Shown here: piece after piece, positions 1 to 16,572 of the stretch
How the letters are laid out: every line of letters starts with the position of its first letter
Position numbering within the stretch: position 1 is the stretch's first letter
Source of the DNA: Clostridiales bacterium
GTDB lineage: Bacteria; Bacillota; Clostridia; Oscillospirales; Oscillospiraceae
Assembly (NCBI GenBank): GCA_021201475.1
Contig: JAJQEV010000079.1
Coordinates: 1-18,578 of the forward strand
Direction of reading: 5' to 3'
Length of the DNA stretch: 18,578 nt
Notes under the pieces: generated by a model
Databases searched by the model: none
What the model was told of the DNA's origin: nothing
The model's input: the letters and a program-made list of their open reading frames with translations, nothing else
Made by a program: the position numbers and the translations under genes

Positions 1-982
1 TCCTACGTCAATCAGGACATCGTCCCGGAGCGCACTCCGCTGAACGTCCACTTCATAAGAATTCACATAAAAGCGCGCAAGAGCTTTTTATGTGAATTCT
101 ATAAGACGGGAATTTGAGGGCAATGCCCTCAAATTCAGGCTCGGAACGAGCCGGAATTACCCGAAAAGGCAACGCTTTTTCGGGTAATTAGTATTAAAAC
201 ACCGTCCGGCTCCTATCAGGAAATTTTTGATGAGATGATCAAGGAAAAGACCATCTCCACCCGTGGGCTGAAATCGGATGCCCATCTTTTTGGGGAGCTG
301 ATTTTCGATGTCAATTCCGCTTATTTCCACAATCACGGCGGCTATGAGTATGCAAAACAATTCTATGCTGATGCTTACCAGGCAGCCGTGGAAATCGTGG
401 GCGGTGAACAGTATATCCTCTCCGCCGTCATGCACGCCGATGAGCGCAACCGGGCCATGTCTGAAGCTCTGGGGCAGGACGTATATCACTACCATCTCCA
501 CGTCGTTTATATTCCTGTAGTAGAGAAGCAAATTCTATGGTCGAAGCGGTGTAAGGACAAGTCGCTGGTCGGCACCGTCAAGGAGACGATCATGCAGGTC
601 AGTAGCAGTAAGAAGTGGCTGTCCAAGCCTGCGCTGGACGAGGCGGGAAACCCTATCCTCCAGAAGAACGGCAAGGCTTATCCAAACGGGAGAAGGACAC
701 GGAGCTGTTTTACAATGCCGCCGACCCTGTCGCCCATATCCGCACACACGATCTCCGGCTGATTAAGCGGCTGGAGGAGTTCAACGCCAGGCATCCCGAT
801 CTCTGCCGGTTGGTGGAGGATGATGAGTACAACGGGAAGTATTATGACATTGACCGTGCAGGGTGTCCATTCGTATTACGGAGCCCTACTCCCAGGAACG
901 GCGTCAGAAGCAGAGCGAGTGGGCGAAGGTGAATGGGTTGAAGGGAAGCTACAAAGAGGAAGCAGGGACAGTTAAATACTAA
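1..982 (+). pseudogene. MobV/Pre-family plasmid mobilization relaxase remnant. The 5' end lies outside the window. The frame is interrupted by an in-frame TGA at 115-117 inside a palindromic insertion, by a frameshift near 685-700, and by a further frame change near 930.
   Basis: Frame 1 translates 1-114 as SYVNQDIVPERTPLNVHF.. and resumes after the TGA with ..SYQEIFDEMIKEKTISTRGLKSDAHLFGELIFDV. This parallels the MobM(pMV158) N-terminus (NKDINPSRSHLNYEL ... SYEKQIKDYVNENKVSNRAIRKDAVLCDEWII). A later HADE...HYHLHVVYIPV block matches the Mob_Pre His motif (HxDE..PHxH). The C-terminal part continues in frame 3 (615-932) and then in frame 2 (to 982). Confidence 0.6.
58..189. repeat. Cluster of three consecutive hairpins or palindromes (58-100, 110-136 and 155-189) inserted in the mob reading frame.
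   Basis: Direct base-pair check: agaattcacataaaagc / gctttttatgtgaattct forms a stem of about 17 bp. gaatttgagggca a tgccctcaaattc is a perfect 13-bp stem and a 27-bp palindrome. aattacccgaaaag / ctttttcgggtaatt is a 13-bp stem. All three arms begin with gaatt or aatt. The pMV158 protein has about 7 residues at this position, whereas about 51 codons are present here. Confidence 0.7.
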
Positions 983-997
983 TGCTAATTATGTACT

Positions 998-1028
998 ATC
1001 GCCCGTGGATGTTTCCGCGGGCGATTTT
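998..1028 (+). terminator. Rho-independent terminator after the mob remnant.
   Basis: Stem atcgcccgtgg / ccgcgggcgat with a 7-nt loop, followed by TTTT. Confidence 0.45.
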
Positions 1029-1084
1029 AGCGCTTAGATTAGCCAAGAAATTGCGAAAATCTGATATAATCTTTGCATTTCCTA

Positions 1085-1113
1085 TTGACTTCTTCTGCAT
1101 ATATCGATAAAAT
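1085..1113 (+). promoter_or_regulatory. Sigma-70-type promoter for the XRE regulator gene.
   Basis: TTGACT at 1085-1090, a 17-nt spacer, then TAAAAT at 1108-1113. A palindromic tatcgata lies in the spacer and could be an operator. An alternative extended -10 TGaTATAAT is at 1062-1070. Confidence 0.5.
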
Positions 1114-1154
1114 ATAGTTGTGTTCAAATATTGATCTCGTATGAGGTATAACGG

Positions 1155-1367
1155 ATGAAGATTAGCTATAAAAAGCTGTGGTTGCTGCTGGTTGAAAGAG
1201 AAATATCAGCAGCAACACTTCGCAAGGATTTGAATATTGCCACTGGCACAATGACAAAGCTCCGGCGGAACGAAGATGTTGCGCTTTCGGTTTTGCTTCG
1301 TATCTGTGGGTATCTGGATTGTAATATTGGGGATATTTGCGATGCGGTGCGGGTAGAATCCGAATAA
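1155..1367 (+). CDS. XRE/Cro-C1-type helix-turn-helix transcriptional regulator, 70 aa.
   Basis: ATG preceded by GAGGT. The sequence is a typical small HTH: LRKDLNIATGTMTKLRRNEDVALSVLLRICGYLDC. Confidence 0.85.
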   Translation: MKISYKKLWLLLVEREISAATLRKDLNIATGTMTKLRRNEDVALSVLLRICGYLDCNIGDICDAVRVESE

Positions 1368-1409
1368 ATTTGGGGCTTTCTTGCACATAGTTTGAGTGGA
1401 GGGAAAGAG

Positions 1410-2132
1410 ATGGCGTTTTGTAGTAATTGTGGGAATGAGCTGGCACCTGGTGCTAAATTCTGCTCTGAATGTGGAATGCCGGTTGATGCTACAAGCCAAG
1501 CAAATAACCGTCGGAGGACAATCTATGATGGCGTAATTCATAAGTGCCCAAATTGTGGAGAAACGCTTAGCTCATTCATGGTAGCCTGCCCTGCTTGTGG
1601 GTACGAGTTACGGGATATCAAAACAACAAACTCTATAAAAAAGTTTGCATCAAAAATTGAGCAGGCAGATTCTGAGGAGCAAAAAGCAAATTTAATAAGG
1701 AATTTCCCTGTACCTAATACTAAAGAGGACACTTTCGAGTTTATGATTTTGGCTTCAAGTAATATTACAGGTGAATATAATGAAGCTGTATTTAATGCAT
1801 GGTTGGCAAAGTTTGAACAGTGCTATAAGAAGGCATCCTTATCTTTTGGCACAGATTCCGACTTTTCTAAAATCCAGATTTTGTATGAACAAACTGTCAA
1901 AAAGGTCAACAAAGAAAAAGTAGCGCATGGAGCTAATAAGGTTGGTAACGCAATTTCAAAATTTACTGCTACATTCCCAAATCCAATATTTGGAATAATT
2001 GTAGTTCTTCTCATGATCTATGAGGTTAGAAGAATTGCAAACGGATTTTTTAGCGCATTAGACATCATAATGGTTGCCTTAATTTTATGGCCTGTTTACA
2101 AAATTACAGATAAAAAGGGCAAAAAGAAATAA
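1410..2132 (+). CDS. Double zinc-ribbon membrane protein.
   Basis: The ATG at 1410 has a GGAGGG RBS. The ORF track uses a TTG at 1392 instead. Two CxxC...CxxC ribbons are present (FCSNCGNELAPGAKFCSECG and CPNCGETL..CPACG). A C-terminal hydrophobic segment (IFGIIVVLLMIY...IIMVALILWPV) is present. It is AT-rich relative to the core region. Confidence 0.8.
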   Translation: MAFCSNCGNELAPGAKFCSECGMPVDATSQANNRRRTIYDGVIHKCPNCGETLSSFMVACPACGYELRDIKTTNSIKKFASKIEQADSEEQKANLIRNFPVPNTKEDTFEFMILASSNITGEYNEAVFNAWLAKFEQCYKKASLSFGTDSDFSKIQILYEQTVKKVNKEKVAHGANKVGNAISKFTATFPNPIFGIIVVLLMIYEVRRIANGFFSALDIIMVALILWPVYKITDKKGKKK

Positions 2133-2146
2133 GGAGGTAGCTAAAA

Positions 2147-3466
2147 ATGGGCTTGTTCGAAAGAACCAACCGCAAAGGTGGTTTCATGGACGAAATCCGC
2201 TGTGACGAGTCGTCCTATCTCATTTGGAAATGGTACCCGTCCGGCGTGCAGGCGGGCACAGGAAACCGGGAGAATGCCATCCGCTGGGGTTCTTCCCTCC
2301 GCGTGAAGGATGGCGAAGTGGCTGTATTTGTATACAAGCAAAAGAACGGAACCATGCAGGATTTTATTGAGGGACCCTTTGACCAGACAATCAAGACAGC
2401 GAACCTCCCTGTGCTGGCGAGTATCATTGGGTTAGCCTATGAAGGCGGCACGCCGTTCCAGGCGGAGATTTATTTTATCAACTTGGCTCGTATCATTCAG
2501 GTCAGGTTTGGCGTTCCGTTTTTTGATGTGTACGATCCGAGATTTATGGATTTCGGCGTGCCTGTTGCGGTTCGGGGCACGATCAGCTTTCGCATCTCGG
2601 ATTATCGAGAATTTATCAAGCTACATCGGCTGAGTACATTCCAACTGGAAGATTTTCAGCGGCAAATCCGTGACGCGGTCAGCAGATATGTGAAAGACAC
2701 GGTAGCAAATGCACCGGCTGCCCATAACATTCCTGTTGTCCAGATTGAGAGCAAGACATCCATTATCAATGATGCGGTCGAATATGATGTTGCGCAACGC
2801 CTGAGGGAAACGTTTGGAGTGTCTGTATCCGGCGTTGACATCAGCGCAATCGAGATTGATAAGACCAGCGACGGGTATCGGCATCTTATGGCCGTTACCA
2901 GAGACATTGCTGCTACAAGGGTCGAAGCAGAGACGCTGGATTACACGGAGCGCCTCCGCATTCAGCGTGAAGAAGGGCAGTATGCCGTGCATAAACAGAC
3001 CCAATCTGCCAATCTCGGTGCTTTCCAAACCGAGAAGCAGGCAGAGGTTGGTGTCGCAGGGGCACAGGCGCTCGGTCAGATGGGCGCCAACAATGCGGGC
3101 AGTGTGGACCTGGGCGGCGCCGGGTTCAATCCGGCCGCTATGATGGCAGGTGTTGCTCTGGGCGGCGCTGTTGGGCAAAACATTGCCGGGGCCATGAACG
3201 GTGCGATGGCAGGGACATCCCAAACGGCACATCAAAGCGTTACACCTCCGCCAATTCCCTCTCCCTCCTATTACGTAGCAGTAAACGGACAACCGACCGG
3301 CTCGTTTGAGTTGTCTGCTTTGACACAAATGGCTTCTGCAGGTCAGTTCACTGCTGACAGTTTGGTTTGGAAAAACGGGATGGAGCAGTGGGAGAAAGCC
3401 GGCTTAGTTAATGAACTCAAGTCAATTTTTAATGCAGTACCACCAATACCAACGGACAAATTCTAA
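2147..3466 (+). CDS. SPFH/Band-7-like protein of the COG4260 (B. subtilis YdjI-like) type, with a Gly/Ala/Met-rich linker and a C-terminal DUF4339 (GYF-like) domain.
   Basis: It has a perfect RBS (AAGGAGG) 14 nt after the upstream gene. The N-terminus resembles YdjI-like proteins. The low-complexity linker is GANNAGSVDLGGAGFNPAAMMAG.... The C-terminus YYVAVNGQPTGSFELSALTQMASAGQFTADSLVWKNGMEQWEKA matches the DUF4339 signature. Confidence 0.85.
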   Translation: MGLFERTNRKGGFMDEIRCDESSYLIWKWYPSGVQAGTGNRENAIRWGSSLRVKDGEVAVFVYKQKNGTMQDFIEGPFDQTIKTANLPVLASIIGLAYEGGTPFQAEIYFINLARIIQVRFGVPFFDVYDPRFMDFGVPVAVRGTISFRISDYREFIKLHRLSTFQLEDFQRQIRDAVSRYVKDTVANAPAAHNIPVVQIESKTSIINDAVEYDVAQRLRETFGVSVSGVDISAIEIDKTSDGYRHLMAVTRDIAATRVEAETLDYTERLRIQREEGQYAVHKQTQSANLGAFQTEKQAEVGVAGAQALGQMGANNAGSVDLGGAGFNPAAMMAGVALGGAVGQNIAGAMNGAMAGTSQTAHQSVTPPPIPSPSYYVAVNGQPTGSFELSALTQMASAGQFTADSLVWKNGMEQWEKAGLVNELKSIFNAVPPIPTDKF

Positions 3467-3483
3467 ATGAAGAAGACTTAACA

Positions 3484-4020
3484 ATGCAAGACAACACGAT
3501 TAGGGAGTTGGCAGTTAAGTTTCGAAATGCTATAGAAAAAGCTTGTGATAAGGGTTTATTTGCTAACGATACCTTTAATCGTTTCCCGCGTGGGTGTTGT
3601 GGGGATACAAGCTATCTATTAGCTGAATATTTTTGCGAAAATGGGATTGAAAGTATTTACGTAAACGGAACAGACGCTTATGGTCAAGGTCATGCATGGC
3701 TAGTAATTAAGGATATGCGAATTAGAACACCAGTTCCAGAATACTTCGAGATGCCGGAATATATAAAAATCGTCTTAAACAGATATGGCAATGAAAAATG
3801 GAATGATTCCCCTAACACTGTATATTATTCTTCAAGTGATTTAGAGAACGGCTTGATTGTTGACCTTACAGCAGACCAATTCGGGGAAGCACCTGTGTAT
3901 GTTGACTGCATTAACGATTTTTATAGGAAATTTGAGTTTCGCTCTGCAGATGATTACATATGCTTGGGTAACGAAAGAATGTCTAGTCTATACCAAACGA
4001 TACTATCGTGCTTGGAATAA
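3484..4020 (+). CDS. Hypothetical 178-aa protein with a Cys/His motif. The function call is tentative: putative papain- or transglutaminase-like cysteine peptidase or amidase.
   Basis: The start lies 17 nt after the SPFH gene stop, so probably the same operon. The motifs are RGCCGD (Cys), GQGHAWLVI (a transglutaminase-core-like HAW) and later acidic residues (IVDLTADQF). There is no signal peptide. Confidence 0.55.
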   Translation: MQDNTIRELAVKFRNAIEKACDKGLFANDTFNRFPRGCCGDTSYLLAEYFCENGIESIYVNGTDAYGQGHAWLVIKDMRIRTPVPEYFEMPEYIKIVLNRYGNEKWNDSPNTVYYSSSDLENGLIVDLTADQFGEAPVYVDCINDFYRKFEFRSADDYICLGNERMSSLYQTILSCLE

Positions 4021-4068
4021 GCCGTGGGTAGGTCAAGATGACAGATGACTAGCTTGTCCATTTATTGC

Positions 4069-4317
4069 TCAATCAGTTAATCCATGTGTCCCGGCCATAT
4101 CCCTTGCATACTGCTCCAATTCACCAGAGAACACCAGGTTGACGTAGGTCGCAGGTTTGTTGTAAATCAGCCAGTCAATTTCCGTCTGCATGGGGACAGT
4201 GGGGCAAATCTCATCATCCACCCCTGGGGTATAGATGATGATTTGGCTTCCATCCGTGTACCTGATCTCTACGCTGGCGGTGTTGATATTGAATCGGCAG
4301 GAAAGTAATTTCTTCAT
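4069..4317 (-). CDS. Hypothetical small protein, 82 aa.
   Basis: The ATG at 4317 (MKKLL) is preceded by AAGGAG with an 8-nt spacer. The longer track ORF to 4458 starts on GTG with no RBS and its 5' extension looks non-coding. The gene is convergent with the upstream operon. Confidence 0.6.
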   Translation of the reverse strand: MKKLLSCRFNINTASVEIRYTDGSQIIIYTPGVDDEICPTVPMQTEIDWLIYNKPATYVNLVFSGELEQYARDMAGTHGLTD

Positions 4318-4507
4318 TGTCGGGACTCCTTTGAAATAAAATCGCTCACAAGTTTCTCCATAATGTGCGTGAAAATAATAATCGCAACTGGTTTTGAGGT
4401 GAACCAGACGGACAATTTCATGCGCATTATTGGAGGGAATAATGCCCGGTAAGGCCACAAATTGTTGCCTGAGGCCATTGTGAACGGATAGTTCGCATAA
4501 AATCGTT

Positions 4508-4529
4508 GGCTACAAAACGGCTACAAAAT
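4508..4529. repeat. Tandem direct repeat ggctacaaaac / ggctacaaaat, 2 copies with an 11-bp period, upstream of the WG-repeat gene.
   Basis: Seen directly in the divergent intergenic region 4318-4542. Confidence 0.6.
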
Positions 4530-4542
4530 TCGTAAAGACGCT

Positions 4543-5229
4543 GTGAAAAGCCTGGAATACGTGGATTATTTGGACAAAAAGCGAATTGAGAGTGCATTTT
4601 ATCACCCTAAATCAAAGCCTGAAACTAGAGTGGGAATGATTTCAGAGGACGAAAAAAGCCTGAAATACTATGATGAGCTTAGAGACCCGCAACTTGGCGA
4701 GTATCTAAACGTCGGCACGTTCCAGGATGGTATTGCGGCAGTCGAAACCGAGGAAGGCTGGATACTGATCGATACCGCCGGAATTGCGGTGTCGTCCGCC
4801 GTTTACGAGAACATCAAACTAAACGCGGATGGTTCCTGGCTGAAAAACGGTGTCATGCTTGCAAAGCTGGATGGCGCATACCATCTCTATGACAAGGATG
4901 GCGAGCAGTTCAGCGCTCTCAGCTGTGATGATATTGACTGCATAGCGGACAGCGGCTCTCTGATTGCCTTTGAGCGAGATGGGCTGTGGGGATTTGCTGA
5001 TTTGGAGGGCAATGAGATCATTGAACCGGCTTACGTAAAGGCGAGGAACTTCTCGAATGGGCTGACCGCAGTCCAGGAGGAAACCTACTGGGGCTTTATC
5101 AATACTGAGAACGCTTTAGTCATTGAGTATACTTTTTTGGATGCGGACTATTTTGATGACGATGGTACCTGCATGGTGACGACGGCTTCCGACACCTATC
5201 AGTTGCTGACCCGAAACATCCTTGACTGA
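4543..5229 (+). CDS. WG-repeat (KWG-type) protein.
   Basis: Repeated GxWGFxD/N modules (DGLWGFADLEGNEIIEPAY, ETYWGFINTENALVIEY, EEGWILIDTAGIAV). The start is uncertain: GTG at 4543 or ATG at 4636, and neither has a strong RBS. Confidence 0.65.
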   Translation: MKSLEYVDYLDKKRIESAFYHPKSKPETRVGMISEDEKSLKYYDELRDPQLGEYLNVGTFQDGIAAVETEEGWILIDTAGIAVSSAVYENIKLNADGSWLKNGVMLAKLDGAYHLYDKDGEQFSALSCDDIDCIADSGSLIAFERDGLWGFADLEGNEIIEPAYVKARNFSNGLTAVQEETYWGFINTENALVIEYTFLDADYFDDDGTCMVTTASDTYQLLTRNILD

Positions 5230-5260
5230 TGGGGCGGCTTGGGAAAAGGAGTGTGTCGTG

Positions 5261-5713
5261 ATGGGTACGAATGAATATACGATCAGCGAACTCCTTCTCA
5301 TGGGGATTCGCAACTGGCGGTCAGGCATCCCTGTTGTAGTTCTGATTTTGTCCTATGTCCTGATTTTCTCCTTCATGCGGAAGCGAGGTATCAGTATCGA
5401 CAGCGAAGAAAAGGTGCGCAAGCGTGCGAAAGAAGCGGGAAGATATGCCATTGCTGAGCTGCGCAACAGTAGTTTTTCGTGGACAAAAGACAATGAGCGT
5501 CGCTACTGTGGAAATTATGAGTTTGAGGTAAATGGGCGACATTACCGTAAAAGCGCATGGTTTTGGCATAACCCGCCGCAGCATCTTATGTTCTATTGGA
5601 AACGAACGCCTGCTCGTGCAAAATCGGAAAGTGTTATGGGCAAAGGGAACCTGTGGGTCTATGCGGTCCCGTGGGTTTTGGCTGTTATCGTTTACAGTTT
5701 CATCGCAAAATGA
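5261..5713 (+). CDS. Small membrane protein of unknown function, 150 aa.
   Basis: ATG at 5261 with an AAAGGAG RBS and a 9-nt spacer. The N-terminal helix is GIPVVVLILSYVLIFSF and the C-terminal helix is VYAVPWVLAVIVYSFI. Confidence 0.7.
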   Translation: MGTNEYTISELLLMGIRNWRSGIPVVVLILSYVLIFSFMRKRGISIDSEEKVRKRAKEAGRYAIAELRNSSFSWTKDNERRYCGNYEFEVNGRHYRKSAWFWHNPPQHLMFYWKRTPARAKSESVMGKGNLWVYAVPWVLAVIVYSFIAK

Positions 5714-5732
5714 AAGAATTTGGTGAAAAACT

Positions 5733-6592
5733 ATGAAAACAAAGCATTTTTTTCGTTGTTGCTGGCCGCTGCATAGTTACTGACGCTCTGTGCCTGCGGC
5801 GGGAACAGCAATGCGGCCACAGAAGCGACAACTGACAACAATGAAGCATCCAACGCCTCTGTAGCAAACGAAGATTATTTCGAGTGGGACATCTACGGCT
5901 CCAACGAGAACTATATTAGTGGTCTGACTGAAAACGGCGCAAAGCAGACTGCACTGGTGATTCCGGAACGCTGCGAAGGATTTTCCGGTTCTCCCTTCTT
6001 CGGGGAGGACATCAGTGTGGAAACAGTTACCTTTGAGGGGGAACACGATCTCGTTTTGGGTTCCGGTTTTGCCAGCTCCAGTAGTTTGAAAACCGTTGTG
6101 CTACCGGAGGGGCTGACCGAGATCGGCAGCCAGGCATTCTACGGTTCCTCGGTGGAAAGCGTCACCATTCCATCTACGGTCACAGTGATCGGTGCAAATG
6201 CGTTTCAATCCTGCTCTTCCCTGCGTGAGGTAATCATTGAAGGGACGAGTTTGGTTGAGATCGGCGATGGCGCATTCAATTATTGCACCAGCTTGGAGAG
6301 CATCAATTTGCCGGACAGCATCACGATCATCGGTGAACAGGCGTTTGAACGGTGTTCCGCACTGACAGAGATTACATTACCGGAGTCTCTGACCACATTA
6401 GGGACGGGCGCTTTTTTGACCGCCGGACTAACAGACATCTATATGCCGGAAGGCATGGAGTTGGAGAAATACGACGCGACTTCTTCCCTGAACACGGATG
6501 CAACCACCACAGTACATGTGGTCAGCGGTTCCTGGGCCAATGAGCAACAGTCCGTGTGGGAGGAAATGGGGCATACTGTCTCCGTAGAATAA
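5733..6592 (+). pseudogene. BspA-type leucine-rich-repeat (LRR_5) surface lipoprotein gene with a disrupted N-terminus.
   Basis: The ATG at 5733 encodes MKTKHFF. The T7 tract at 5747-5753 then puts the signal peptide (SLLLAAA) one frame off. An in-frame TAG at 5774-5776 precedes the lipobox LLTLCACGG in the frame that stays open to 6592. There is no ATG, GTG or TTG in that frame between 5777 and 5957. LRR repeats follow: VTIPSTVTVIGANAFQSC, SINLPDSITIIGEQAFERC, EITLPESLTTLGTGAF. Confidence 0.6.
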
Positions 6593-6884
6593 GGAGCGCA
6601 AAATGAGAAAACTGGCATAGATTATATCATCGTGTCCAATTTTTGCACCCCCGTGTCCAGTTTTAGTTTACCGCTTCAGCCTTGACTACGCCTTAACGCC
6701 GACAGGCACGGAAATCAAGGGCGGCGATTTCAAAGTCAATTTCTGCGCAGGCTTGGGGCAGTTCAGAATTTGTGAAAATTACCCCTGACAACTCTCATCC
6801 CATCAACCGCACGATACGCAGCCACGTTAGGCATAAACGTGACAGCGCGGCTATATCACCGGTGTTCCACGTTGGGTTAACAAT

Positions 6885-6925
6885 AAAACGCACAGACGGA
6901 GCCCTTCCGCCTGTGCGTTTTATTT
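6885..6925. terminator. Bidirectional rho-independent terminator serving sigA on the minus strand.
   Basis: aataaaacgcacag acggagcccttccgc ctgtgcgttttatttg. The stem is about 11 bp and is flanked by an A-run and a T-run. Confidence 0.7.
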
Positions 6926-6985
6926 GTGTATCACTGTCAGCGGCTCCTCTGCGCCGCCAGCGTCCCGGAGGGTATGTCAGTGCGG

Positions 6986-8232
<1,247 letters not shown>

Positions 8233-8236
<4 letters not shown>

Positions 8237-9975
8237 GGTGCATCCTCCGTTCGTTTCCGGCTGCTGACCGCCAAAAGGTCGCGGTCGTCCGCAATGCCGT
8301 CCTTCGTATGTTCTGTCTGGATGGTTCTGATATAATCTGCCAGCGCCGCCTCGCTGTTTTGCAGCGACTCCGGCTTCTGGGCAATGGTGGCAATATGGCT
8401 CATCTCCTGGTTGTCCAGCAGGGAGCCCAGCACCTCGATGGGGGTGTCCTTCCCCTCTTCCCAGCGGCTTTGCAGGATGCCGAACACCTTGCCCAGCACC
8501 TGGGAGGAGAACTCCTCCTGCCGCAGCCCCTCCGTCTGGGCCAGCAACTCCGGTGCCAGCAGCAGCAGGCGGATGACGCCCTCCTCCGCCATGGCCGAGC
8601 GCACGTTCCGGTAGCGGAACTGCCGCTCCGTGGGCTGGTTCTCCGCCGCCGGGGTCAGGGCCTTCCGGTCGGCCTGCTTCTTCTGCTGCCAGCCCAGCCG
8701 ACTGCGCTGCCGCTCCACCTCGGAGAGCATGGCCGCCTTATCGATGCCCGCCGCCTCCGCCGCCTGAGCGCCGTAAATCTCCCGCTCCACCGGGCTGCTG
8801 AGCCGAGCCAGCAGGTCTGCCGCCTCCTGGAGGTACTGCACCTTCTGGTCGTCCGCAGTCAGGTCGTACTTCTGCTGGATTTGGCCGATGCGGTAGGGTA
8901 TCTGCCCCGCCGCCCCGTCGATGAGCCGCTGGAAGGCGTTATGTCCATACTTCTTGATATACTCATCCGGGTCCTTGGCGCCCGTGACCCGCAGCACCCG
9001 GACGTTCACCCCCGTCTTGTTTAAAAGGCCGATGGCCCGCTGGGCGGCGTTGATGCCTGCCTGGTCGCCGTCGTAGGAGATGACCACCTCTTTCGTGTAC
9101 TTGGCCAGCAGCCGCGCGTGGTTCTCTGTCAGGGAGGTACCCAGGGAGGCCACCGCGCAGTCGAATCCTCCCTGGTGCAGGGCGATGGTGTCCATATAGC
9201 CTTCGGTGAGAATGAGATATCCCGCCTTGGACTTCTTCGCCAGGTTCAGGGCGAACAGGTTCTTGCTCTTGTTGTAAATCACAGTGTCCGGCGAGTTCAG
9301 GTATTTCGGGGTGGAATCGTCCAGCACCCGCCCACCGAAGCCGATGACGTTGCCCCGCAGGTCGATGATGGGGAACATGACCCGGCCCCGAAACCGGTCA
9401 TACACGCCGCCCTTCTTGGACTGCACCGCAAGCCCCGCGTCCAGCAATTCCAGCTTGGAGTAACCCAGTTCTGTCATAGCCCGTATCAGCCCGTCCCATT
9501 CCGGGAGGGAGTACCCCAGGCCGAAGTTCGTCACCGTCCGCCTGGAGAGGCCCCGCCGGGCGAAGTAGTCCTGCCCCTGCTGGCCCTGGGGGCCGGTCAG
9601 GTTGGCGTGGAAGTACCGCGCCGCCTCTTTGTTCAGGCTCAGCAGCCGCTCCCGCTTCTTCGCCTCACCCCGGTCTCCGTTGTCCTCCGGCATGGGCATC
9701 CCCGCCCGCTGAGCCAGGATGCCCACCGCGTCCACAAAGCCGACACCCTCCGCCTCCATGACGAAGTTAATCAGGTGGCCTCCCTTGTGGCAACCGAAGC
9801 AGTAGTACATCTGCTTCTCCGGCGTGATGGAGAAGGAGGGGGTCTTTTCACTGTGGAAGGGGCAGCAGCCCCAGTAGCGGTTGCCCTTCTTTTGCAGCGT
9901 GGTGTAGCCGGAGGCCACGTCCACCAAATCGACCCGCTCATTCAGCTCCTCCAAAAAGGCTTCCGGGATTGCCAT
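8233..9975 (-). CDS. dnaG: DNA primase DnaG.
   Basis: N-terminal zinc-binding domain ([23 protein letters not shown]), TOPRIM core ([14 protein letters not shown]) and a GGAGGGGG RBS. The dnaG-sigA operon arrangement is conserved. Confidence 0.97.
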
Positions 9976-10144
9976 GTTCCCCCTCCATTCTGCTATTTTA
10001 TCTATTTTGGGCGATTCCCTGCGCGATATACCAGACGTGCGTGAAATTTCCGCGCAATTCCACCTCTATCAATAGAATACGCGACCCGCCCCGTTTTTCC
10101 TCTTACATTCCGGGGAAATTTTCAAATTTTTCTGCCCAGGGACA

Positions 10145-10176
10145 AAAAGCGGAACAGACGCCGGATACACGGCGTC
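10145..10176 (-). terminator. Possible terminator downstream of mgtE.
   Basis: Minus-strand stem gacgccg / cggcguc with a 6-nt loop. The U5 run sits about 8 nt after the stem, so it is weak. Confidence 0.3.
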
Positions 10177-10206
10177 CATTCCGATTTTGGGTGCGCTCCA
10201 GCCGGA

Positions 10207-11580
10207 CTATAGCACGTCCAGCAGCGTCTTCGCCAGCTCAAAGTAAATCAGCAGCGAGACCGCGTCCACAATGGTGGTGATAAAGGGGGAGGCCATCACG
10301 GCCGGGTCAAAGCCCAGCTTGTTGGTCAGCATGGGCAGGGTGCAGCCAATCAGCTTGGCACAGATGATGGTCAGCAGCAGCGTCAGGCACACCACGGCGT
10401 CCACCGCCAGGGTGATATCCGTCCGGCCAAACAGCGTCCGGTCCACCAGCCAAATCTTCACAAAGTTCACCACGGCCAGCGTTACGCCGCAACACAGGGC
10501 TACCCGCAGTTCCTTCCAAATGACCTGAAGGAGGTCCCGGAACTCGATCTCCCCCAGGGACAGGCCGCGAATCACGGTGACGGAAGCCTGGGAGCCGGAG
10601 TTGCCGCCGGTATCCATCAGCATGGGAATGAAGCCGGTCAGCGCCACGCAGGCGGCCAAGGCGGCCTCAAAGCTGTCAATAATCAGCCCGGTGAAGGTGG
10701 CGGACACCATCAGCAGCATCAGCCAGGGGATTCGGGCCTTCCAGGTGTCAAACACGCCGGTACGCAGATAGGACTGCTCATTGGGGACGATGGCGGCCAT
10801 CTTCTGGATGTCCTCCGTAGCCTCTTCCTGCAAGACGTCCACGGCGTCGTCCACCGTGATGATGCCCACCAGACGGTTCTCCTTATCCACCACGGCAAGG
10901 CTCATCAGGTCGTACTTCTTCATCAGGTTGGCGGCCTCTTCCTGGTCGTCCGTGGTGTAGCAGTTGATGACGTTGGTGTTCATAATATCCTGAATGTGAT
11001 CCTCATACTTGTGCATGAGCAAATCTTTCACCGAGACAACGCCCTCCAGGTGGCGGCTCTTGTCGATGACAAACAGGATATAGATGGTTTCCTTATTCTG
11101 CCCGTGGGCGCGGATATAGTCGAAGGACTGACTCACCGTCATGTCCTTGTGGAGGGCGATATATTCGGCAGTCATAATGCTGCCGGCCGAATTATCCGGG
11201 TAGTTCAGGAACTGGTTAATGGTCTTGCGGGTGTCCGGTTTGGCGTTCTCCAGCACACGGCGCACCACGGAGGCGGGCAGTTCCTCCAGCATATCCACCG
11301 CATCGTCCACAAACAGATCCTCCACGATGTTCTGAACCTCGTTATCGGTCATGCCGTTAATTAGTTCCCGCTGCACCTCCACCGGAAGATAGGCGAACAC
11401 ATCGCTGGCCAGGTCCTTGGACAGCATCCGAAACACGAGAGTGGCCTGCTCGCTGCTCAGATCCTCCAAAAAGTCGGCAATGTCTGCCTCATTTAACTTT
11501 TCTAACACGAATTTCAGCTTCCGGAACTGTTTCGTCTCCACCAGTTCCTTCAGCTCTTCTATATGGATTTCAATATTCAA
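10207..11580 (-). CDS. mgtE: Magnesium transporter MgtE (N-domain, CBS pair and TM domain).
   Basis: Sequence features: CBS pair region, GGNSGSQASV motif and C-terminal TM helices. The start is a TTG preceded by AGGAGG. Confidence 0.95.
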   Translation of the reverse strand: MNIEIHIEELKELVETKQFRKLKFVLEKLNEADIADFLEDLSSEQATLVFRMLSKDLASDVFAYLPVEVQRELINGMTDNEVQNIVEDLFVDDAVDMLEELPASVVRRVLENAKPDTRKTINQFLNYPDNSAGSIMTAEYIALHKDMTVSQSFDYIRAHGQNKETIYILFVIDKSRHLEGVVSVKDLLMHKYEDHIQDIMNTNVINCYTTDDQEEAANLMKKYDLMSLAVVDKENRLVGIITVDDAVDVLQEEATEDIQKMAAIVPNEQSYLRTGVFDTWKARIPWLMLLMVSATFTGLIIDSFEAALAACVALTGFIPMLMDTGGNSGSQASVTVIRGLSLGEIEFRDLLQVIWKELRVALCCGVTLAVVNFVKIWLVDRTLFGRTDITLAVDAVVCLTLLLTIICAKLIGCTLPMLTNKLGFDPAVMASPFITTIVDAVSLLIYFELAKTLLDVL

Positions 11581-11869
11581 TTTCCTCTACCTCCTAAACA
11601 TCAAAACATCAAAGAAACGTTGTGTCGGGAGGCAGGCGGCGAACGATCACTCCTTACGCCTTTGCTCTAAAAACTGGTTGCGCTGTATTGGACTGACAGT
11701 TAGAGCCGGGTCAGCACAGCGCCTCAGCCCGCAGGTGACTGAGACCTTTGACTGTGACCCACAAGGGAACCGGAGCATCCGTTCCGTCAGACCTGCAACT
11801 TCGACCGCTTGCGTCCATCAAATTCTCATCACCTTTCCATGAAAAAATACAGAAAACGCCACTATATTT

Positions 11870-11898
11870 ATTATGCCAGAAAACCCGCCCCGCGTCAA
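11870..11898 (-). promoter_or_regulatory. Sigma-70-type promoter on the minus strand, giving a leader of about 280 nt for mgtE.
   Basis: In minus-strand sense: TTGACG, a 17-nt spacer, then TGgCATAAT. The extended -10 is the same as at the carA promoter. Confidence 0.5.
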
Positions 11899-12084
11899 AT
11901 AAAAAAAGCCGTTTTTTCCTGTTTTCTCCCGGAAAATCTTCGTCATTTTGCCATAGGGAATCGACAGAGACAGTATGGCCGACTGCGCCCTGTTACAGCT
12001 TTCCCGAGAATGGGGCGTTCATACATGGCAGAAGGGATTGCCCGCTCGGCGGGCAAAACATTGTTCCTTCTAATATCTTTATCC

Positions 12085-12130
12085 AAAGAAAGAAAAGCCT
12101 CCGTTTGAGGGCTTACCCTCAAACGGAGGC
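12085..12130 (-). terminator. Rho-independent terminator of carB.
   Basis: Perfect 15-bp stem gcctccgtttgaggg / ccctcaaacggaggc with a 4-nt loop, followed on the minus strand by UUUUCUUUCUUU. Confidence 0.8.
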
Positions 12131-12163
12131 TCAGGACGTTCATGTGGGTTATGCGCACCGGGG

Positions 12164-15100
12164 TCAAATCTCGGTGATGTCGATGGGTACCAGCTCCTCG
12201 CTGCGGCCCTGCTCCCGGGCGGTGAGGATGGCGTGGGCGGTGTCGATGGCAGTCAGGCACAGCACAGAGTGCTCCACCGCCATCCGGCGAATCTTCACAC
12301 CGTCACCGTCCTCCCGCTTGGAGCGGCGGGGGGTGTTGACGATGACGTTCACCGTGCCGGACTGAATCATATCCCCGATGTTGGGGTGGGCGGCCCCCAG
12401 CTTATGGATGAACTTCACGTTTACGCCTCGCTCCTTCAGGTAGGCGTAGGTACCACGGGTGGCGAACAGCTCGATGCCCAAATCCTCCATCTCCTTGGCA
12501 ATGGAGATGATTTCGGGCTTGTCCTCATCCTTCACCGTCAGGATGGCACGGCAGCCCCGCTTGGGCACCTTCATGTTGGCCCCCTTGAAGGCCTTCATCA
12601 GGGCCTGGGGGAAGCTCTCCGCAATGCCCAGGCATTCGCCTGTGGACTTCATTTCAGGGCCAAGGTTGATGTCCACATCGGTCAGCTTCTCAAAGGAGAA
12701 CACCGGCATTTTCACGGCGTAATAGTTGGCCTCCGGGTACAGGCCGGTGCCGTAGGGCAGATCCTTCAGCTTCTCCCCCAGCATGACCCGGGTGGCCAGG
12801 TCGATGATGGGGACGTTCGTCACCTTGGAGATATAGGGGATGGTACGGGAGGAACGGGGGTTGGCCTCGATGATATACACCGTGTCGTTATAGATGATGA
12901 ACTGCACGTTGATGAGGCCGATGACCCCCAGGTGCTTGGCCAGATTCTTGGTGTGCTGCAAGATGGTCTGCTTGTGCTTCTCCTCCACATGGAGGGGGGG
13001 ATAGACGGCGATGGAGTCGCCGGAGTGGATACCGGCCCGTTCCACGTGTTCCATAATGCCGGGAATGAGGATATCCTCCCCGTCGAACACGCCGTCCACT
13101 TCCACCTCACGGCCCATCAGATACTTGTCCACCAGGATGGGATGCTCCTGGACGGTCATGCTGATGATGTTCATAAAGGAGCGGATGTCCTCGTCTTTGT
13201 AGGCAATCTCCATGCCCTGGCCGCCCAGCACATAGGAGGGGCGCACCAGCACGGGGTAGCCCACCTCGTTGGCGGCGCGGAGGGCCTGCTCGGTGGTGAA
13301 CACGGTGCGGCCCTCGGCCCGGGGGATGCCGCACTTGCGGAGGATGACATCGAACCGCTCCCGGTCCTCCGCCGCGTCCACGCCGTCAGCGTCGGTACCC
13401 AGAATCTTCACGCCCATATCGGTAAGGGCCTGGGCCAGCTTGATGGCGGTCTGGCCGCCGAACTGCACCACCGCCCCGTCGGGATGCTCCAGCTCTACCA
13501 CGTGCTCCACGTCCTCGGCGGTCAGCGGCTCGAAGTACAGCCGGTCGGCAATGTCAAAGTCGGTGGAGACGGTCTCCGGATTATTGTTGATGATGATGGT
13601 CTCGTAGCCCTGGCGTTTCAGCGCCCAGACGGAGTGGACGGAGCAGTAGTCAAACTCGATGCCCTGGCCGATACGGATGGGGCCGGAGCCCAGCACCAGC
13701 ACCTTCTTCCGGTCGGTGGGGATGGACTCGTTTTCATCGTCATAGGTGGAGTAGTAATAGGGGGTCTGGGCCTCGAACTCCGCCGCGCAGGTGTCCACCA
13801 TCTTGAAGGAGGGGTGGATGTTGTACAGCTTCCGCAGGTCGCGGATGTGGGTGCGGGTGGTACCGGACAGCTCGGCGATCAGCGTATCGCCAAAGCCCAG
13901 CTCCTTGGCCTGGCGCAGCACCTCCCGGTTGGGGACGCCCTTTTTCAGGGTGTTCTCCATCTCCACGATGTTGTTCAGGCGGTCCAGGAACCAGATGTCG
14001 ATTTTGGTGATGTGGTTGATTTCCTCCGCGGAGATACCCCGGCGCAAGGCCTCGGCGCAGACGAAGATGCGCTCGTCGTCAATGACATACAGCTTGTCCC
14101 GAATCTCGTCGGTGTGCATCTGGGCCAGCTTGGGCAACTGGAGGGAGGAAACGTGCTGCTCCAGGGAGCGGATGGCCTTCATCAGCCCGGCCTCGAAGCT
14201 GTTGCCGATGGCCATGACCTCGCCGGTGGCCTTCATCTGGGTACCCAGGGTGCGGCTGGCGGTGACGAACTTGTCAAAGGGCAGGCGGGGGATTTTCAAC
14301 ACACAGTAATCCAGCGCCGGTTCAAAGCAGGCGGTGGTCTTGCCGGTGACGGCGTTGGGTATCTCGTCCAGGGTGTAGCCCAGGGCGATTTTGGCGGCTA
14401 CCTTGGCGATGGGGTAGCCGGTGGCCTTGGAGGCCAGGGCGGAGGAGCGGCTGACACGGGGGTTCACCTCAATGACCGCGTACTCGTAGGAGTCAGGGTT
14501 CAGGGCGAACTGGCAGTTGCAGCCGCCTTCGATTTCCAGGGCGGAGATGATGTCCAGCGCGGCGGTGCGGAGCATCTGATACTCCTTGTTGGCCAGGGTC
14601 TGGGTGGGGGCCACCACGATGGAGTCGCCGGTGTGGACGCCCACAGGGTCGATGTTCTCCATGCCGCAGATGGTGATAACGTTGCCTGCGGAGTCCCGCA
14701 TGACCTCGAACTCGATTTCCTTCCAGCCGGAGATGCACCGCTCGATGAGGCACTCGTGGACGCGGCTCAGGTTCAGGCCACGGTCGCAAATCTCCCGGAG
14801 CATGACCTCGTCATAGGCGATGCCGCCGCCGGTGCCCCCCAGGGTGTAGGCGGGGCGGACGATGACCGGGTAGCCGATGGTGTTGGTGAAGTCCACGGCG
14901 GCCTGCACGTCATGCACCACCTCGGAGGTGACGCAGGGCTGGCCGATGGATTCCATGGTGTCCTTAAAGCCCTGGCGGTCCTCCGCCTTATGGATGGAGG
15001 CGGCGCTGGTGCCCAGCAGCCGGACGTTGAACTTGTCCAGCGTGCCGTCCTCATACAGGTTCATGGCCAGGTTCAGCCCTACCTGACCGCCCAGGGTGGG

Positions 15101-15361
15101 CAGCACGGCGTCGGGGCGCTCCTTCTCAATGACCTCGGCCAGGGTGAAGCAGTTCAGCGGCTCGATGTAAACGTGGTCGGCCACGTCCTTATCCGTCATG
15201 ATGGTGGCGGGGTTGGAGTTGACCAGCACCACCTCGATGCCCTCCTCCTTCAGGGAGCGGCAGGCCTGGGTGCCCGCGTAGTCAAACTCGGCGGCCTGGC
15301 CGATGATGATGGGGCCGGAGCCGATGACCAATACCTTTTTTAAGCTCTTATCCAGCGGCAT
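12164..15361 (-). CDS. carB: Carbamoyl-phosphate synthase large subunit.
   Basis: Two ATP-grasp halves and an MGS-like C-terminus (KKVLVIGSGPIIIGQAAEFDYAGTQ...). The preferred start is ATG at 15361 (MPLDKSLKK), which has a GGAAGGAG RBS and lies 1 nt after the carA TGA. The track's longer ORF to 15400 is an upstream extension. Confidence 0.96.
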   Translation of the reverse strand: MPLDKSLKKVLVIGSGPIIIGQAAEFDYAGTQACRSLKEEGIEVVLVNSNPATIMTDKDVADHVYIEPLNCFTLAEVIEKERPDAVLPTLGGQVGLNLAMNLYEDGTLDKFNVRLLGTSAASIHKAEDRQGFKDTMESIGQPCVTSEVVHDVQAAVDFTNTIGYPVIVRPAYTLGGTGGGIAYDEVMLREICDRGLNLSRVHECLIERCISGWKEIEFEVMRDSAGNVITICGMENIDPVGVHTGDSIVVAPTQTLANKEYQMLRTAALDIISALEIEGGCNCQFALNPDSYEYAVIEVNPRVSRSSALASKATGYPIAKVAAKIALGYTLDEIPNAVTGKTTACFEPALDYCVLKIPRLPFDKFVTASRTLGTQMKATGEVMAIGNSFEAGLMKAIRSLEQHVSSLQLPKLAQMHTDEIRDKLYVIDDERIFVCAEALRRGISAEEINHITKIDIWFLDRLNNIVEMENTLKKGVPNREVLRQAKELGFGDTLIAELSGTTRTHIRDLRKLYNIHPSFKMVDTCAAEFEAQTPYYYSTYDDENESIPTDRKKVLVLGSGPIRIGQGIEFDYCSVHSVWALKRQGYETIIINNNPETVSTDFDIADRLYFEPLTAEDVEHVVELEHPDGAVVQFGGQTAIKLAQALTDMGVKILGTDADGVDAAEDRERFDVILRKCGIPRAEGRTVFTTEQALRAANEVGYPVLVRPSYVLGGQGMEIAYKDEDIRSFMNIISMTVQEHPILVDKYLMGREVEVDGVFDGEDILIPGIMEHVERAGIHSGDSIAVYPPLHVEEKHKQTILQHTKNLAKHLGVIGLINVQFIIYNDTVYIIEANPRSSRTIPYISKVTNVPIIDLATRVMLGEKLKDLPYGTGLYPEANYYAVKMPVFSFEKLTDVDINLGPEMKSTGECLGIAESFPQALMKAFKGANMKVPKRGCRAILTVKDEDKPEIISIAKEMEDLGIELFATRGTYAYLKERGVNVKFIHKLGAAHPNIGDMIQSGTVNVIVNTPRRSKREDGDGVKIRRMAVEHSVLCLTAIDTAHAILTAREQGRSEELVPIDITEI

Positions 15362-15362
15362 T

Positions 15363-16457
15363 TCAGTTCGCTCCTTCCTGCTCCGCTTTGGCGGCGGCAA
15401 TCATGGCGTCAAACTCGTCAAACAGATAATCGGTGTCCACCGGGCCGGGGGAGGCCTCCGGGTGAAACTGGACGGTGAAGATGTGCTTGCCCTTATAGCG
15501 CAGGCCCTCCACGGTGCCGTCGTTCACGTTGACGTGGCTGATTTCCGCCACATTGGGGTCGATGCTGTCCGCCTTGATGACGTAGCCGTGGTTCTGGCTG
15601 GTGATGAAGCAGCGGCCCCGGGCCAAGTCCTTCACCGGATGGTTGGCCCCCCGGTGACCGAAGGGCATCTTCTCACTCTTGGCGCCGGTGGCCAGGGCCA
15701 TGAGCTGGTGGCCCAGGCAGATGGCGAAGATGGGCAGGTCGGAGTCGTACAGCTTCTTCACCTCGGCGATGATTTCTGTGCAGTCCGCCGGGTCGCCGGG
15801 GCCGTTGGACAGCATGACGGCGTCAAAGTTGCCATTCAGCACGGTCTCCGCCGGGGTGTGGGCGGGGAACAGGGTGATGTCCATCCCCCTGGCGTTCAGG
15901 CGGCGAATCATATTCAGCTTCTGCCCGAAGTCGTACATAGCCAGGCGGTAGCCGTCTCCAGCGAAATGCTCCACATGGTCGGTGGAGGTCTTTTCCACCG
16001 TGCCGGAGACCCGGTAGGCGCGGATTTTCTCCAGGCACTCCTCCATAGAAAAATTCTCCGCACAGGTAATCATGCCGTTCATAACACCCTGATCGCGGAG
16101 AATACGAGTGACAGCCCGGGTGTCGATGTCCTGAATACCGGTGATGTCATGCTCCTTTAAATAGTTGTTCAACGTGTCCTCACAGCGGAAGTTGCTCCCC
16201 CTGGTGGCCAGATGGCGCATCAGGAAGGCGTCCGCCCAGGGGCGGCGGCTCTCATTGTCCTCATGGTTCACGCCGTAGTTGCCAATCAGGGGATACGTCA
16301 TAATCACGCCCTGGCCCGCATAGGAGGGGTCGGTCAGAATCTCCTGATAGCCCACCATGGACGTGTTGAACACCATCTCACAGATACAGTCCTTCGTGCT
16401 GCCGATGCTGCTGCCCTCAAAGGTATCGCCGTTTTCCAGGATTAAGGTCGCCTTCAT
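15363..16457 (-). CDS. carA: Carbamoyl-phosphate synthase small (glutamine amidotransferase) subunit.
   Basis: The start MKATLILENGDTFEG is the canonical CarA N-terminus. The GATase catalytic residues are Cys (ICLGHQL) and His (FHPE). The RBS is AAGGTGG. The track ORF extends upstream to 16640 across the leader. Confidence 0.94.
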   Translation of the reverse strand: MKATLILENGDTFEGSSIGSTKDCICEMVFNTSMVGYQEILTDPSYAGQGVIMTYPLIGNYGVNHEDNESRRPWADAFLMRHLATRGSNFRCEDTLNNYLKEHDITGIQDIDTRAVTRILRDQGVMNGMITCAENFSMEECLEKIRAYRVSGTVEKTSTDHVEHFAGDGYRLAMYDFGQKLNMIRRLNARGMDITLFPAHTPAETVLNGNFDAVMLSNGPGDPADCTEIIAEVKKLYDSDLPIFAICLGHQLMALATGAKSEKMPFGHRGANHPVKDLARGRCFITSQNHGYVIKADSIDPNVAEISHVNVNDGTVEGLRYKGKHIFTVQFHPEASPGPVDTDYLFDEFDAMIAAAKAEQEGAN

Positions 16458-16541
16458 ATCCCGCATTCCACCTTTCTGATTTCTAACTCCTTCGGGGATA
16501 CACCGCAGCCCTGTCCGGCGGCGGGCCTTCCCACAGGCTTG

Positions 16542-16572
16542 AAAAAACAGGAAGTGCCGCGCGTCACATTCC
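16542..16572 (-). terminator. Putative leader attenuator or terminator in the carA 5' UTR.
   Basis: The minus-strand RNA reads ggaaugug acgcgcgg cacuucc ug UUUUUU. The stem is 7 bp with one bulge, followed by a U6 run, about 85 nt upstream of the carA start. Confidence 0.35.

Follow-up and report, generated by a model that had tools for sequence, protein, structure and literature searches.

A widespread SPFH-GYF gene cassette with a variable zinc-ribbon membrane anchor: a candidate PspA-independent module for envelope homeostasis in gut Clostridia

On contig JAJQEV010000079.1 of a Clostridiales bacterium of the Oscillospiraceae (assembly GCA_021201475.1), four closely spaced genes were analyzed in a stretch of 18,578 nucleotides, the whole of which is referred to here as the window (positions 1 to 18,578). 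The genes code for a regulator of the HTH_26 family, a membrane protein with two zinc ribbons, designated the anchor, a soluble SPFH protein with a C-terminal GYF domain, and a 178-aa protein with conserved Cys and His residues. The first three, together with an operator, are proposed to form a widespread and horizontally mobile cassette, which would be independent of PspA and self-regulated and would act in envelope homeostasis or stress, with slots for optional genes. This proposal draws on analogy to a characterized system of Bacillus subtilis and is given about an even chance of being correct.

The cassette is defined by its recurrence. At least 8000 homologues combine an SPFH domain with GYF_2, most of them from gut Clostridia, and the best 120 are 76-83% identical to the window protein, share its two-domain architecture and are named just 'SPFH domain-containing protein'. 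SPFH relatives at 50-89% identity are spread over Clostridia, Erysipelotrichales, Bacteroidales, Mollicutes-like metagenome-assembled genomes (MAGs) and Adlercreutzia. A scan of one genome per species, with the SPFH protein at 35-89% identity, resulted in 60 genome loci, mainly from Clostridia and also from Erysipelotrichales, Bacteroidales (Alistipes, Prevotella, Muribaculaceae), Acholeplasmataceae/Izemoplasmatales and Adlercreutzia MAGs. In 55 of these loci, the DNA extends far enough upstream to reveal the anchor slot, and in 53 of them an anchor homologue ends no more than 60 nt ahead of the SPFH gene. In the other two, the slot is filled by a different zinc-ribbon open reading frame (ORF) in L021 and by none in L060. 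An HTH_26 homologue is located upstream of the cassette in 45/60 loci. Three neighbourhood look-ups on long contigs gave the gene order HTH_26 (70-71 aa), one or two zinc-ribbon proteins, SPFH-GYF_2, the zinc-ribbon proteins being a DZR-TM2 protein followed by a 368-aa DZR protein in one case, a 716-aa DZR-LRR_5 protein in another and a 282-aa DZR protein in the third. L021 contains the closest relative of the window SPFH gene (83% identity). Here, the ORF in the anchor slot (637-1304) has a single zinc ribbon and is apparently split over two frames (90 aa and 113 aa), and a gene for a GNAT acetyltransferase overlaps the SPFH stop codon.

The components of the cassette evolve at different rates. 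Over 44 loci, HTH_26 is the most conserved cassette protein, with a median identity of 84% to the window protein, compared to 74% for the SPFH protein and 48% for the head domain of the anchor, which was less conserved than the SPFH protein in 44/44 loci. In a mirror-tree analysis, the distance matrices of anchor and SPFH protein correlate with r = 0.29-0.35, whereas parts within the SPFH protein correlate with r = 0.68-0.76. In the window, the GC content at third codon positions (GC3) is 56% for the SPFH gene versus 33% for the anchor gene and 34% for the Cys/His gene, and this suggests that both genes flanking the SPFH gene derive from a more AT-rich donor. The fast divergence, the low matrix correlation and the GC3 contrast together indicate that anchors have been exchanged between cassettes. 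In ten loci (L027-29, L031, L038, L043, L049, L055, L074 and L078), two tandem paralogous anchors precede a single SPFH-GYF gene.

The SPFH protein of the window is predicted to be soluble, since no transmembrane (TM) segment was identified in it (maximum 19-residue hydropathy, KD19, 1.26). Its Band_7_1 domain is connected by a low-complexity linker to the GYF_2 domain, the former DUF4339. The domain is flanked by two Pro-rich motifs, TPPPIP on its N-terminal side and a C-terminal (M/V)PPIPP, both of which are kept in about 45 of 55 homologues and are candidate ligands of the GYF domain. The only relative of solved structure found by sequence was the GYF domain of GltJ/AglX (PDB 7z3c; E 0.003).

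For the anchor, the true start is the ATG at 1410, which follows GGAGGG, and not the TTG at 1392 of the mechanical ORF list, because the N-terminus MAFCSNCG agrees with the family consensus. In the AlphaFold2 (AF2) model, the two ribbons are joined by a disordered linker and followed by a helical head, a membrane hairpin and a Lys-rich tail. With a hairpin that leaves essentially no ectodomain, the window protein represents a minimal anchor. Anchors of other loci are tail-anchored, hairpin or single-TM forms with 100-360 extracytoplasmic residues, which include DUF6591, TM2, LRR_5 or tetraspanin-like parts. The part conserved in the family extends from residue 1 to about 170 and includes the motifs NFxIPNTKEDIxEFMILAxSNI and AWxxKxEQxYQKA; the head defines a previously unannotated domain family.

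The HTH_26 protein, a small repressor-type regulator of the Cro/C1 (XRE) type, has a sub-threshold similarity to VanU. Upstream of its gene, a sigma-70-type promoter-like site was identified, and TTGAC.../TATAAT boxes lie at the equivalent place in most loci. Further upstream lies a palindrome, CGCAA-N4-TTGCG with the consensus aaTTCGCAAGAAGTTGCGAAtt. Of 47 distinct HTH_26 upstream regions, 43 contain it with no more than two mismatches, compared to 0.9 on average and at most 5 in shuffled controls. Its centre is located 78-117 nt before the HTH_26 start codon, upstream of the -35 box; in the window, it lies about 71 nt upstream of the predicted transcription start. The palindrome (candidate site CGCAAGAAGTTGCG) is likely the binding site of the HTH_26 protein.

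The anchor and SPFH genes are separated by 14 nt (GGAGGTAGCTAAAA), in which GGAGG provides a strong ribosome-binding site (RBS), and the SPFH and 178-aa genes by 17 nt (ATGAAGAAGACTTAACA), which are purine-rich only and constitute a weak RBS. Between 1155 and 4020 no credible terminator was identified, terminator-like matches there being weak and inside coding sequence, and a convergent DUF6061 gene ends at 4069. Given the promoter, the lack of an internal terminator and this convergent end, the four genes most simply form one transcription unit. These spacings and RBS strengths, and the domain calls XRE, double zinc ribbon with TM segment, SPFH and DUF4339, had been given in a first-pass annotation of the window made from the sequence alone, and coordinates, Pfam matches, hydropathy and the AF2 model bear them out. 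The same annotation expected its genes to recur together; this was found for the regulator, the zinc-ribbon membrane protein and the SPFH protein, which are almost invariable partners, and not for the Cys/His protein. The architecture is not rare: proteins with SPFH and GYF_2 domains are known by the thousands.

Table 1. Features of the cassette and its surroundings in the window (nt, nucleotide positions; residues, amino acid positions in the respective protein)
Feature	Position (nt)	Strand	Residues	Basis or remark
Mob_Pre/MobV relaxase gene fragment	1-762	+		Pfam Mob_Pre E 2e-18, profile positions 62-181
Probable operator	1042-1055			Window copy GCCAAGAAATTGCG of CGCAA-N4-TTGCG; left half degenerate
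Sigma-70-type promoter-like site	1085-1113	+		TTGACT-17-TAAAAT; 10/12 consensus matches
HTH_26 (Cro/C1, XRE-type) regulator, 70 aa	1155-1367	+		Pfam HTH_26 E 3e-16
Zinc-ribbon membrane anchor, 240 aa	1410-2132	+		Pfam Zn_Ribbon_1 x2 (E 2e-14), DZR (E 4e-10)
Anchor, zinc ribbon 1	1416-1484		3-25	
Anchor, zinc ribbon 2	1542-1610		45-67	
Anchor, predicted five-helix cytoplasmic head	1617-1973		70-188	AF2 model
Anchor, predicted two-helix membrane hairpin, C-terminal	1983-2120		192-237	AF2 model and hydropathy
Soluble SPFH scaffold with GYF tail, 439 aa	2147-3466	+		
SPFH protein, Band_7_1 (PF13421)	2270-2857		42-237	E 6e-23, 81.9 bits (cut-off 24)
SPFH protein, low-complexity linker	3017-3232		291-362	Ala/Gly/Met/Gln-rich; 25% Ala, 22% Gly
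SPFH protein, Pro-rich motif	3242-3265		366-373	TPPPIPSP
SPFH protein, GYF_2	3269-3418		375-424	E 7e-16, 58.1 bits (cut-off 25.8)
SPFH protein, C-terminal motif	3440-3451		432-435	PPIP
Cytosolic Cys-His-Asp protein, facultative, 178 aa	3484-4020	+		
178-aa protein, candidate triad	3595-3600, 3691-3693, 3862-3864		C38/C39, H70, D127	
Inverted repeat	6882-6924	-		19-nt arms and T-run on the minus strand; just downstream of rpoD

The slot downstream of the SPFH gene is variable. Among 25 tightly coupled ORFs in this position, nine contain DUF6591, mostly with a zinc ribbon, four contain DUF4839 and two are extra GYF_2 proteins; Macro, ThsB_TIR, GNAT and SWIM domains were single cases. Among 141 flanking proteins of 48 loci, the only recurrent neighbours of the cassette are further zinc-ribbon, DUF6591 and DUF4839 membrane proteins. 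In two loci, a small ORF with GYF_2 only lies between the SPFH gene and a short form of the Cys/His gene (L136, 4538-4891; L153, 2728-3081).

In the window, the downstream slot is occupied by the gene for the 178-aa protein. For this protein, Pfam gave nothing above the cut-off (best matches CEP76 peptidase-like, E 0.019, and YunG, E 0.04), NCBIfam and PDB sequence searches, the latter with the single sequence and as a profile, gave noise only, a Foldseek search of its model against the PDB was not significant, and no TM segment was identified by hydropathy. Its close family comprises 45 matches, which are free of Pfam annotation, and a profile search at E<=1e-3 retrieved 2204 of 1.8 billion clusters, mostly standalone proteins of 140-200 aa. 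F34, P35, C38, C39, G40, H70, A71, W72, D127, D131 and Q132 are invariant in the family, and C38/C39, H70 and D127 are kept in 41 sequences and also in a subfamily of short proteins. The AF2 model is confident (pLDDT 90.4) and places the Cys pair at the N-terminus of the helix 39-52, His70 on the strand 69-75 and Asp127 on the next conserved strand, 125-127. Because of this arrangement of Cys at a helix N-terminus, His on a strand and Asp on the following strand, we conclude from the model that the protein is probably a distant member of the transglutaminase/papain-like Cys-His-Asp superfamily, and a putative peptidase, deamidase, transglutaminase or acyltransferase. The arrangement, in which the His of the family is part of a His-x-Trp on its strand, is shared with protein-glutaminase, LapG, SseI, the Cif/OspI deamidases and arylamine N-acetyltransferases. 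In contrast to those enzymes, the family has a double Cys (CC), a long N-terminal helix and, in the long form, an insert at 75-118. It would define an unannotated transglutaminase-like family of about 2200 clusters.

Two further arrangements of the Cys/His family were noted. In L001-L003 (3440-6546), genes for a 757-aa AAA_15/AAA_21 ATPase, a 101-aa protein and a family member have overlapping stops and starts within a polysaccharide-synthesis locus and possibly form a three-gene unit; AAA_21 is the upstream neighbour in three further loci. In L004-L006 (e.g. L004, 4076-9050), the Cys/His gene lies between large serine recombinases and a gene for a 776-aa Mrr_cat-nSTAND3 protein, and is thus located at the edge of an integrative element beside a defence-type gene.

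The closest characterized system is PspA-YdjGHI (PspA-SamGHI) of B. subtilis. YdjI (SamI) is a soluble SPFH protein with a low-complexity region, the localization of which requires the membrane proteins YdjG and YdjH (PMC8581546), and SamI was reported to restrain SamGH signalling (bioRxiv 10.64898/2026.02.06.704340). YdjG consists of two zinc ribbons, an NTF2-like domain and a TM segment, and YdjH contains a TPM domain (PMC11237479). The cassette resembles this system in architecture and description: a soluble Band-7/SPFH protein with a low-complexity linker is encoded directly downstream of a two-ribbon membrane protein, and the window anchor is the positional counterpart of YdjG. However, the tail of the window SPFH protein is a GYF_2 domain flanked by Pro-rich motifs and not a zinc ribbon as in YdjI, and the middle part of the anchor is modelled as all-helical, unlike the NTF2-like domain of YdjG. 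In addition, in place of sigma-W control the cassette has a dedicated HTH_26 protein and a palindromic operator, and it is horizontally mobile with a swappable anchor. A phmmer search with E. coli PspA, a single-sequence probe of limited sensitivity, retrieved no PspA from the window or from 161 loci at E<=10, and PspA_IM30 is absent from the precomputed Pfam annotation of L011-L020; the first-pass annotation had likewise noted the lack of PspA. No TPM-domain YdjH-like gene is present among the listed neighbour families, the set scans covering the 25 commonest families. A 'split YdjI', as which the first-pass annotation had regarded the two genes, is rejected: in B. subtilis, YdjG is already a separate two-ribbon membrane protein, encoded upstream of YdjI (PMC11237479).

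Proline-rich sequences are the ligands of bacterial GYF domains, and in about 44% of cases the domain is combined with zinc ribbons via flexible linkers into 'switches' (PMC11135422). Like these ZnR-linker-GYF switches of Myxococcus GltJ/AglX, the cassette combines GYF_2, zinc ribbons, a flexible low-complexity linker and Pro-rich sequence and is membrane-associated. In the cassette, however, ribbons and GYF are located on two separate proteins and the MglA/MglB/AglZ context is missing; moreover, its GYF domain is C-terminal to the SPFH domain, whereas in most bacterial GYF proteins it is N-terminal to a membrane module. A third likeness, invoked by the first-pass annotation, is to HflK/C-FtsH and stomatin-NfeD: in the window, as in a minority of loci, the SPFH scaffold gene adjoins one for a putative enzyme of peptidase fold. 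This enzyme differs from the AAA+ metalloprotease and ClpP-like serine protease of those pairs in being a soluble transglutaminase/papain-like Cys-His-Asp protein, it occurs in only about 5% of cassettes, and the SPFH protein is devoid of a membrane anchor of its own; no NfeD or FtsH-type partner is present among the listed cassette neighbours. Staphylococcus TcaA, of the teicoplanin-associated locus, shares an N-terminal zinc ribbon and a TM segment with the anchor, and long cassette variants also have a large extracytoplasmic domain. The similarity to TcaA is confined to the ribbon, with a weak NCBIfam match to its N-terminus (E 4e-5) far below the cut-off, and the window anchor has no ectodomain. 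We know of no pairing of TcaA with an SPFH protein. A paper describing the SPFH-GYF_2 cassette was not found in a literature search that left subscription journals largely outside.

By analogy with SamG/SamH and SamI (YdjG/H and YdjI), the zinc-ribbon membrane protein would recruit the soluble SPFH protein to the inner side of the membrane, where it would oligomerize and organize or restrain the anchor, along with possible client proteins. What is sensed or organized would depend on the variable outer part of the anchor, and HTH_26, acting at the palindrome, would set the expression of the operon. The module would in this way serve membrane or envelope homeostasis or stress tolerance without PspA and might be carried by mobilizable elements of gut Firmicutes as portable fitness cargo. 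The 178-aa enzyme, as one of several alternative slot genes, would when present most likely act on the SPFH assembly or be regulated by it.

Several observations weigh against this proposal. The AF2 model of the anchor is only moderately confident (pLDDT 74, pTM 0.46), and a fold search with it gave only generic helical-repeat and designed proteins. By simple hydropathy, 8 of 60 anchor homologues lack a TM segment. The system used as analogue differs from the cassette in the SPFH tail, the middle domain of the anchor and the partners PspA and YdjH. The location of the operator upstream of the -35 box is more typical of activators. In the mirror-tree analysis, the partial correlation between the zinc-ribbon head and the GYF tail is about zero, with only a weak signal to the SPFH core; a contact in trans between the two, with the head bound by the GYF tail, is not claimed for this reason. 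Lastly, recognizable mobile-element genes were found within 6 kb in only 8/60 genome loci, as counted with a limited probe set from annotated loci, so that the cassette is not strictly tied to mobilizable elements.

The surroundings of the cassette in the window are those of a low-GC island. The composition falls into two parts, with 36-53% GC from 1 to about 6880 and 55-68% GC in the remainder, which carries housekeeping genes on the minus strand: rpoD (6986-8236), dnaG (8233-9975), mgtE, carB and carA. The cassette genes lie inside the low-GC island; the first-pass description of the module as AT-rich applies to three of its genes (37-44% GC) and not to the SPFH gene (52%), host genes having 60-64%. 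The inverted repeat downstream of rpoD is probably the rpoD terminator and marks the right edge of the island. At its left end, the relaxase ORF is open at the edge of the window and stops prematurely at 762, in line with the relaxase remnant reported in the first pass. It is 64% identical to the Mob_Pre relaxase of L012 by tblastn over residues 36-213 of a 393-residue query, the gene being annotated at 429 residues and running past the end of that locus. A relaxase of the same type is found on the cassette-bearing element of L011/L012, and Mob_Pre, TnpV or primase genes adjoin the cassette in several loci. In line with the mobile-element setting assumed by the first-pass annotation, Mob_Pre-type mobilizable elements often carry the cassette. 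A megablast of the island against known plasmids gave nothing, and tblastn against them only SPFH proteins of less than 30% identity.

Within the relaxase reading frame, a near-perfect hairpin (155-189), for which an oriT-like role is one possibility, has 16-nt arms, 94% complementary, and a 3-nt loop, and an out-of-frame ORF (615-932) overlaps the end of the relaxase ORF. The remainder of the island (4069-6592) contains the DUF6061 gene on the minus strand, a WG_beta_rep protein, a 163-aa membrane protein and a fragment of an LRR_5 (BspA-like) protein; a DUF6061 homologue is also located directly upstream of the cassette in L027/L028. A search for tRNA and Rfam families across the window found none. 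A 1036-aa ORF on the plus strand (12233-15343) was rejected as a gene; it has no family matches, runs opposite to carB (12164-15400, minus) and is a shadow ORF of the kind common where coding DNA is rich in GC.

Three other explanations were considered, the most serious of which concerns the Cys/His gene alone. This gene might be unrelated in function to the SPFH cassette, a promiscuous accessory of mobile DNA at operon ends, in which case the true unit of the window would consist of three genes. From the SPFH side, a gene of the family was identified in 3/60 genome loci (about 5%; L033, L058, L076), leaving 57/60 cassettes devoid of it, and only in L033 does a full-length homologue directly follow the SPFH gene; a 160-aa short form, which retains FPxGCC, HxWL and DxTxDQ, lies between HTH_26 and anchor genes in L058, L076 and the metagenome loci L018-20. 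From the side of the family, about 70 of 80 metagenome loci contain no SPFH gene and have heterogeneous upstream neighbours, and 4/4 divergent homologues on long contigs are located in unrelated contexts: one follows an AAA_15/21 ATPase, one is flanked by serine recombinases and Mrr_cat-nSTAND3, another by VanZ and an amidase, and the last lies among unknown genes. The weak RBS and the GC3 of the window gene, well below that of the SPFH gene, and the many unrelated genes in the same slot of other loci also fit this explanation, which is nevertheless considered to be the minority view. No single neighbour of the family is nearly as frequent as SPFH-GYF: the Cys/His gene lies 5-25 nt downstream of it and co-oriented in 10/80 metagenome loci (about 8 distinct), and no other neighbour recurs more than three times; with a family as rare as about 2200 of 1.8 billion clusters, chance adjacency is negligible. 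Linked members fall into at least four clades, interleaved with unlinked ones in a neighbour-joining tree, occupy two cassette positions and keep the catalytic residues throughout. Judged from these neighbourhoods, the linkage is real, recurrent, polyphyletic and facultative, and the protein is not a core component. The putative Cys-His peptidase that the first-pass annotation saw beside the SPFH protein keeps its catalytic-type fold, in the AF2 model with an Asp, and loses its place in the core. A second explanation, that the cassette serves the mobile element itself through membrane remodelling or exclusion in transfer or through establishment in a new host, would account for Mob_Pre, TnpV, DnaG-like primase (with DUF5906) and AAA_25 genes adjoining it in several loci and in the window, for DUF6061, a gene type of the window island, beside it in L027/L028, and for high sequence identity across distantly related hosts. 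This is regarded as quite improbable: many loci are plain chromosomal and free of nearby mobile-element genes, the cassette being flanked, for instance, by an alanine symporter gene and bioY or adjacent to genes for ABC transporters and two-component systems, and the cassette's own regulator and operator are independent of transfer genes.

The third explanation is anti-phage or anti-mobile-element defence, in which diversifying anchors would sense a perturbation of the envelope and SPFH-GYF would restrain them, or an effector such as the Cys-His-Asp enzyme, until triggered. The cassette is carried by mobilizable elements and low-GC islands, its anchor has traits to be expected of a component under conflict, being fast-evolving, frequently exchanged, in some loci duplicated and variable in its ectodomains, and the slot downstream of the SPFH gene occasionally holds a ThsB_TIR or Macro gene. 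Among the flanking proteins, a few are strong PADLOC matches (PDC-S01, AbiLi, PtuA/AriA-type ATPases, MADS), and elsewhere the Cys/His family adjoins AAA_15/AAA_21 ATPases, Mrr_cat-nSTAND3, MmeI and DUF1016 nucleases. A fast and swappable anchor, however, would fit equally well a sensor or organizer adapting to different envelopes. No PADLOC-DB v2 model was matched by any of the four proteins, the SPFH protein giving only a spurious PtuA match (E 0.004); this agrees with the first-pass statement that no described defence system has such a composition. The minimal and commonest form of the cassette, including that of the window, has no obvious effector and an anchor without ectodomain, about 95% of cassettes lack the putative enzyme, and the flanking genes are mostly ordinary and reveal no consistent defence neighbour, a count for which no background was computed. 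No SPFH relatives were found on IMG/VR viral contigs. A phage origin was rejected for the sole match in a phage collection, MT835670.1 (L161, 8466-21503, 'UNVERIFIED: Bacteriophage sp.'), which bears the full cassette; because of its ABC transporter/FtsX, LytTR two-component and GGDEF neighbours, this record is bacterial chromosomal DNA, seemingly from a virome preparation. The closest characterized relative, moreover, is a stress and homeostasis system and not an immune one. The defence or abortive-infection role proposed in the first-pass annotation is therefore left with weak circumstantial support and is held to be unlikely. Slightly less probable again is its boldest version, a very common mobile immune module in which rapidly swapped sensors would detect phage, bacteriocin or incoming DNA attacking the envelope, with the SPFH-GYF cage as a brake and optional effectors (Cys-His-Asp enzyme, TIR, Macro) in the slots. 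If defence were true, the cassette would constitute a very abundant new immune system; on present evidence, this is the less likely option compared to envelope homeostasis.

SPFH proteins are universal membrane organizers. To our knowledge, the partner logic of bacterial members is defined in few cases other than HflKC-FtsH, stomatin-NfeD and, more recently, SamGHI. The cassette adds a compact SPFH module which is present in thousands of gut-bacterial genomes and crosses families and even phyla at 50-89% protein identity. Its parts suggest a division of labour between a conserved scaffold and regulator, a fast-evolving, exchangeable anchor, and slots for optional genes. For HTH_26, a common regulator, the present analysis further provides a candidate operator. 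With the proposed role in envelope homeostasis as a working basis, the cassette opens to test how a soluble SPFH protein may be recruited to the membrane, what role a Pro-flanked bacterial GYF domain may have, and why mobile elements carry such modules.

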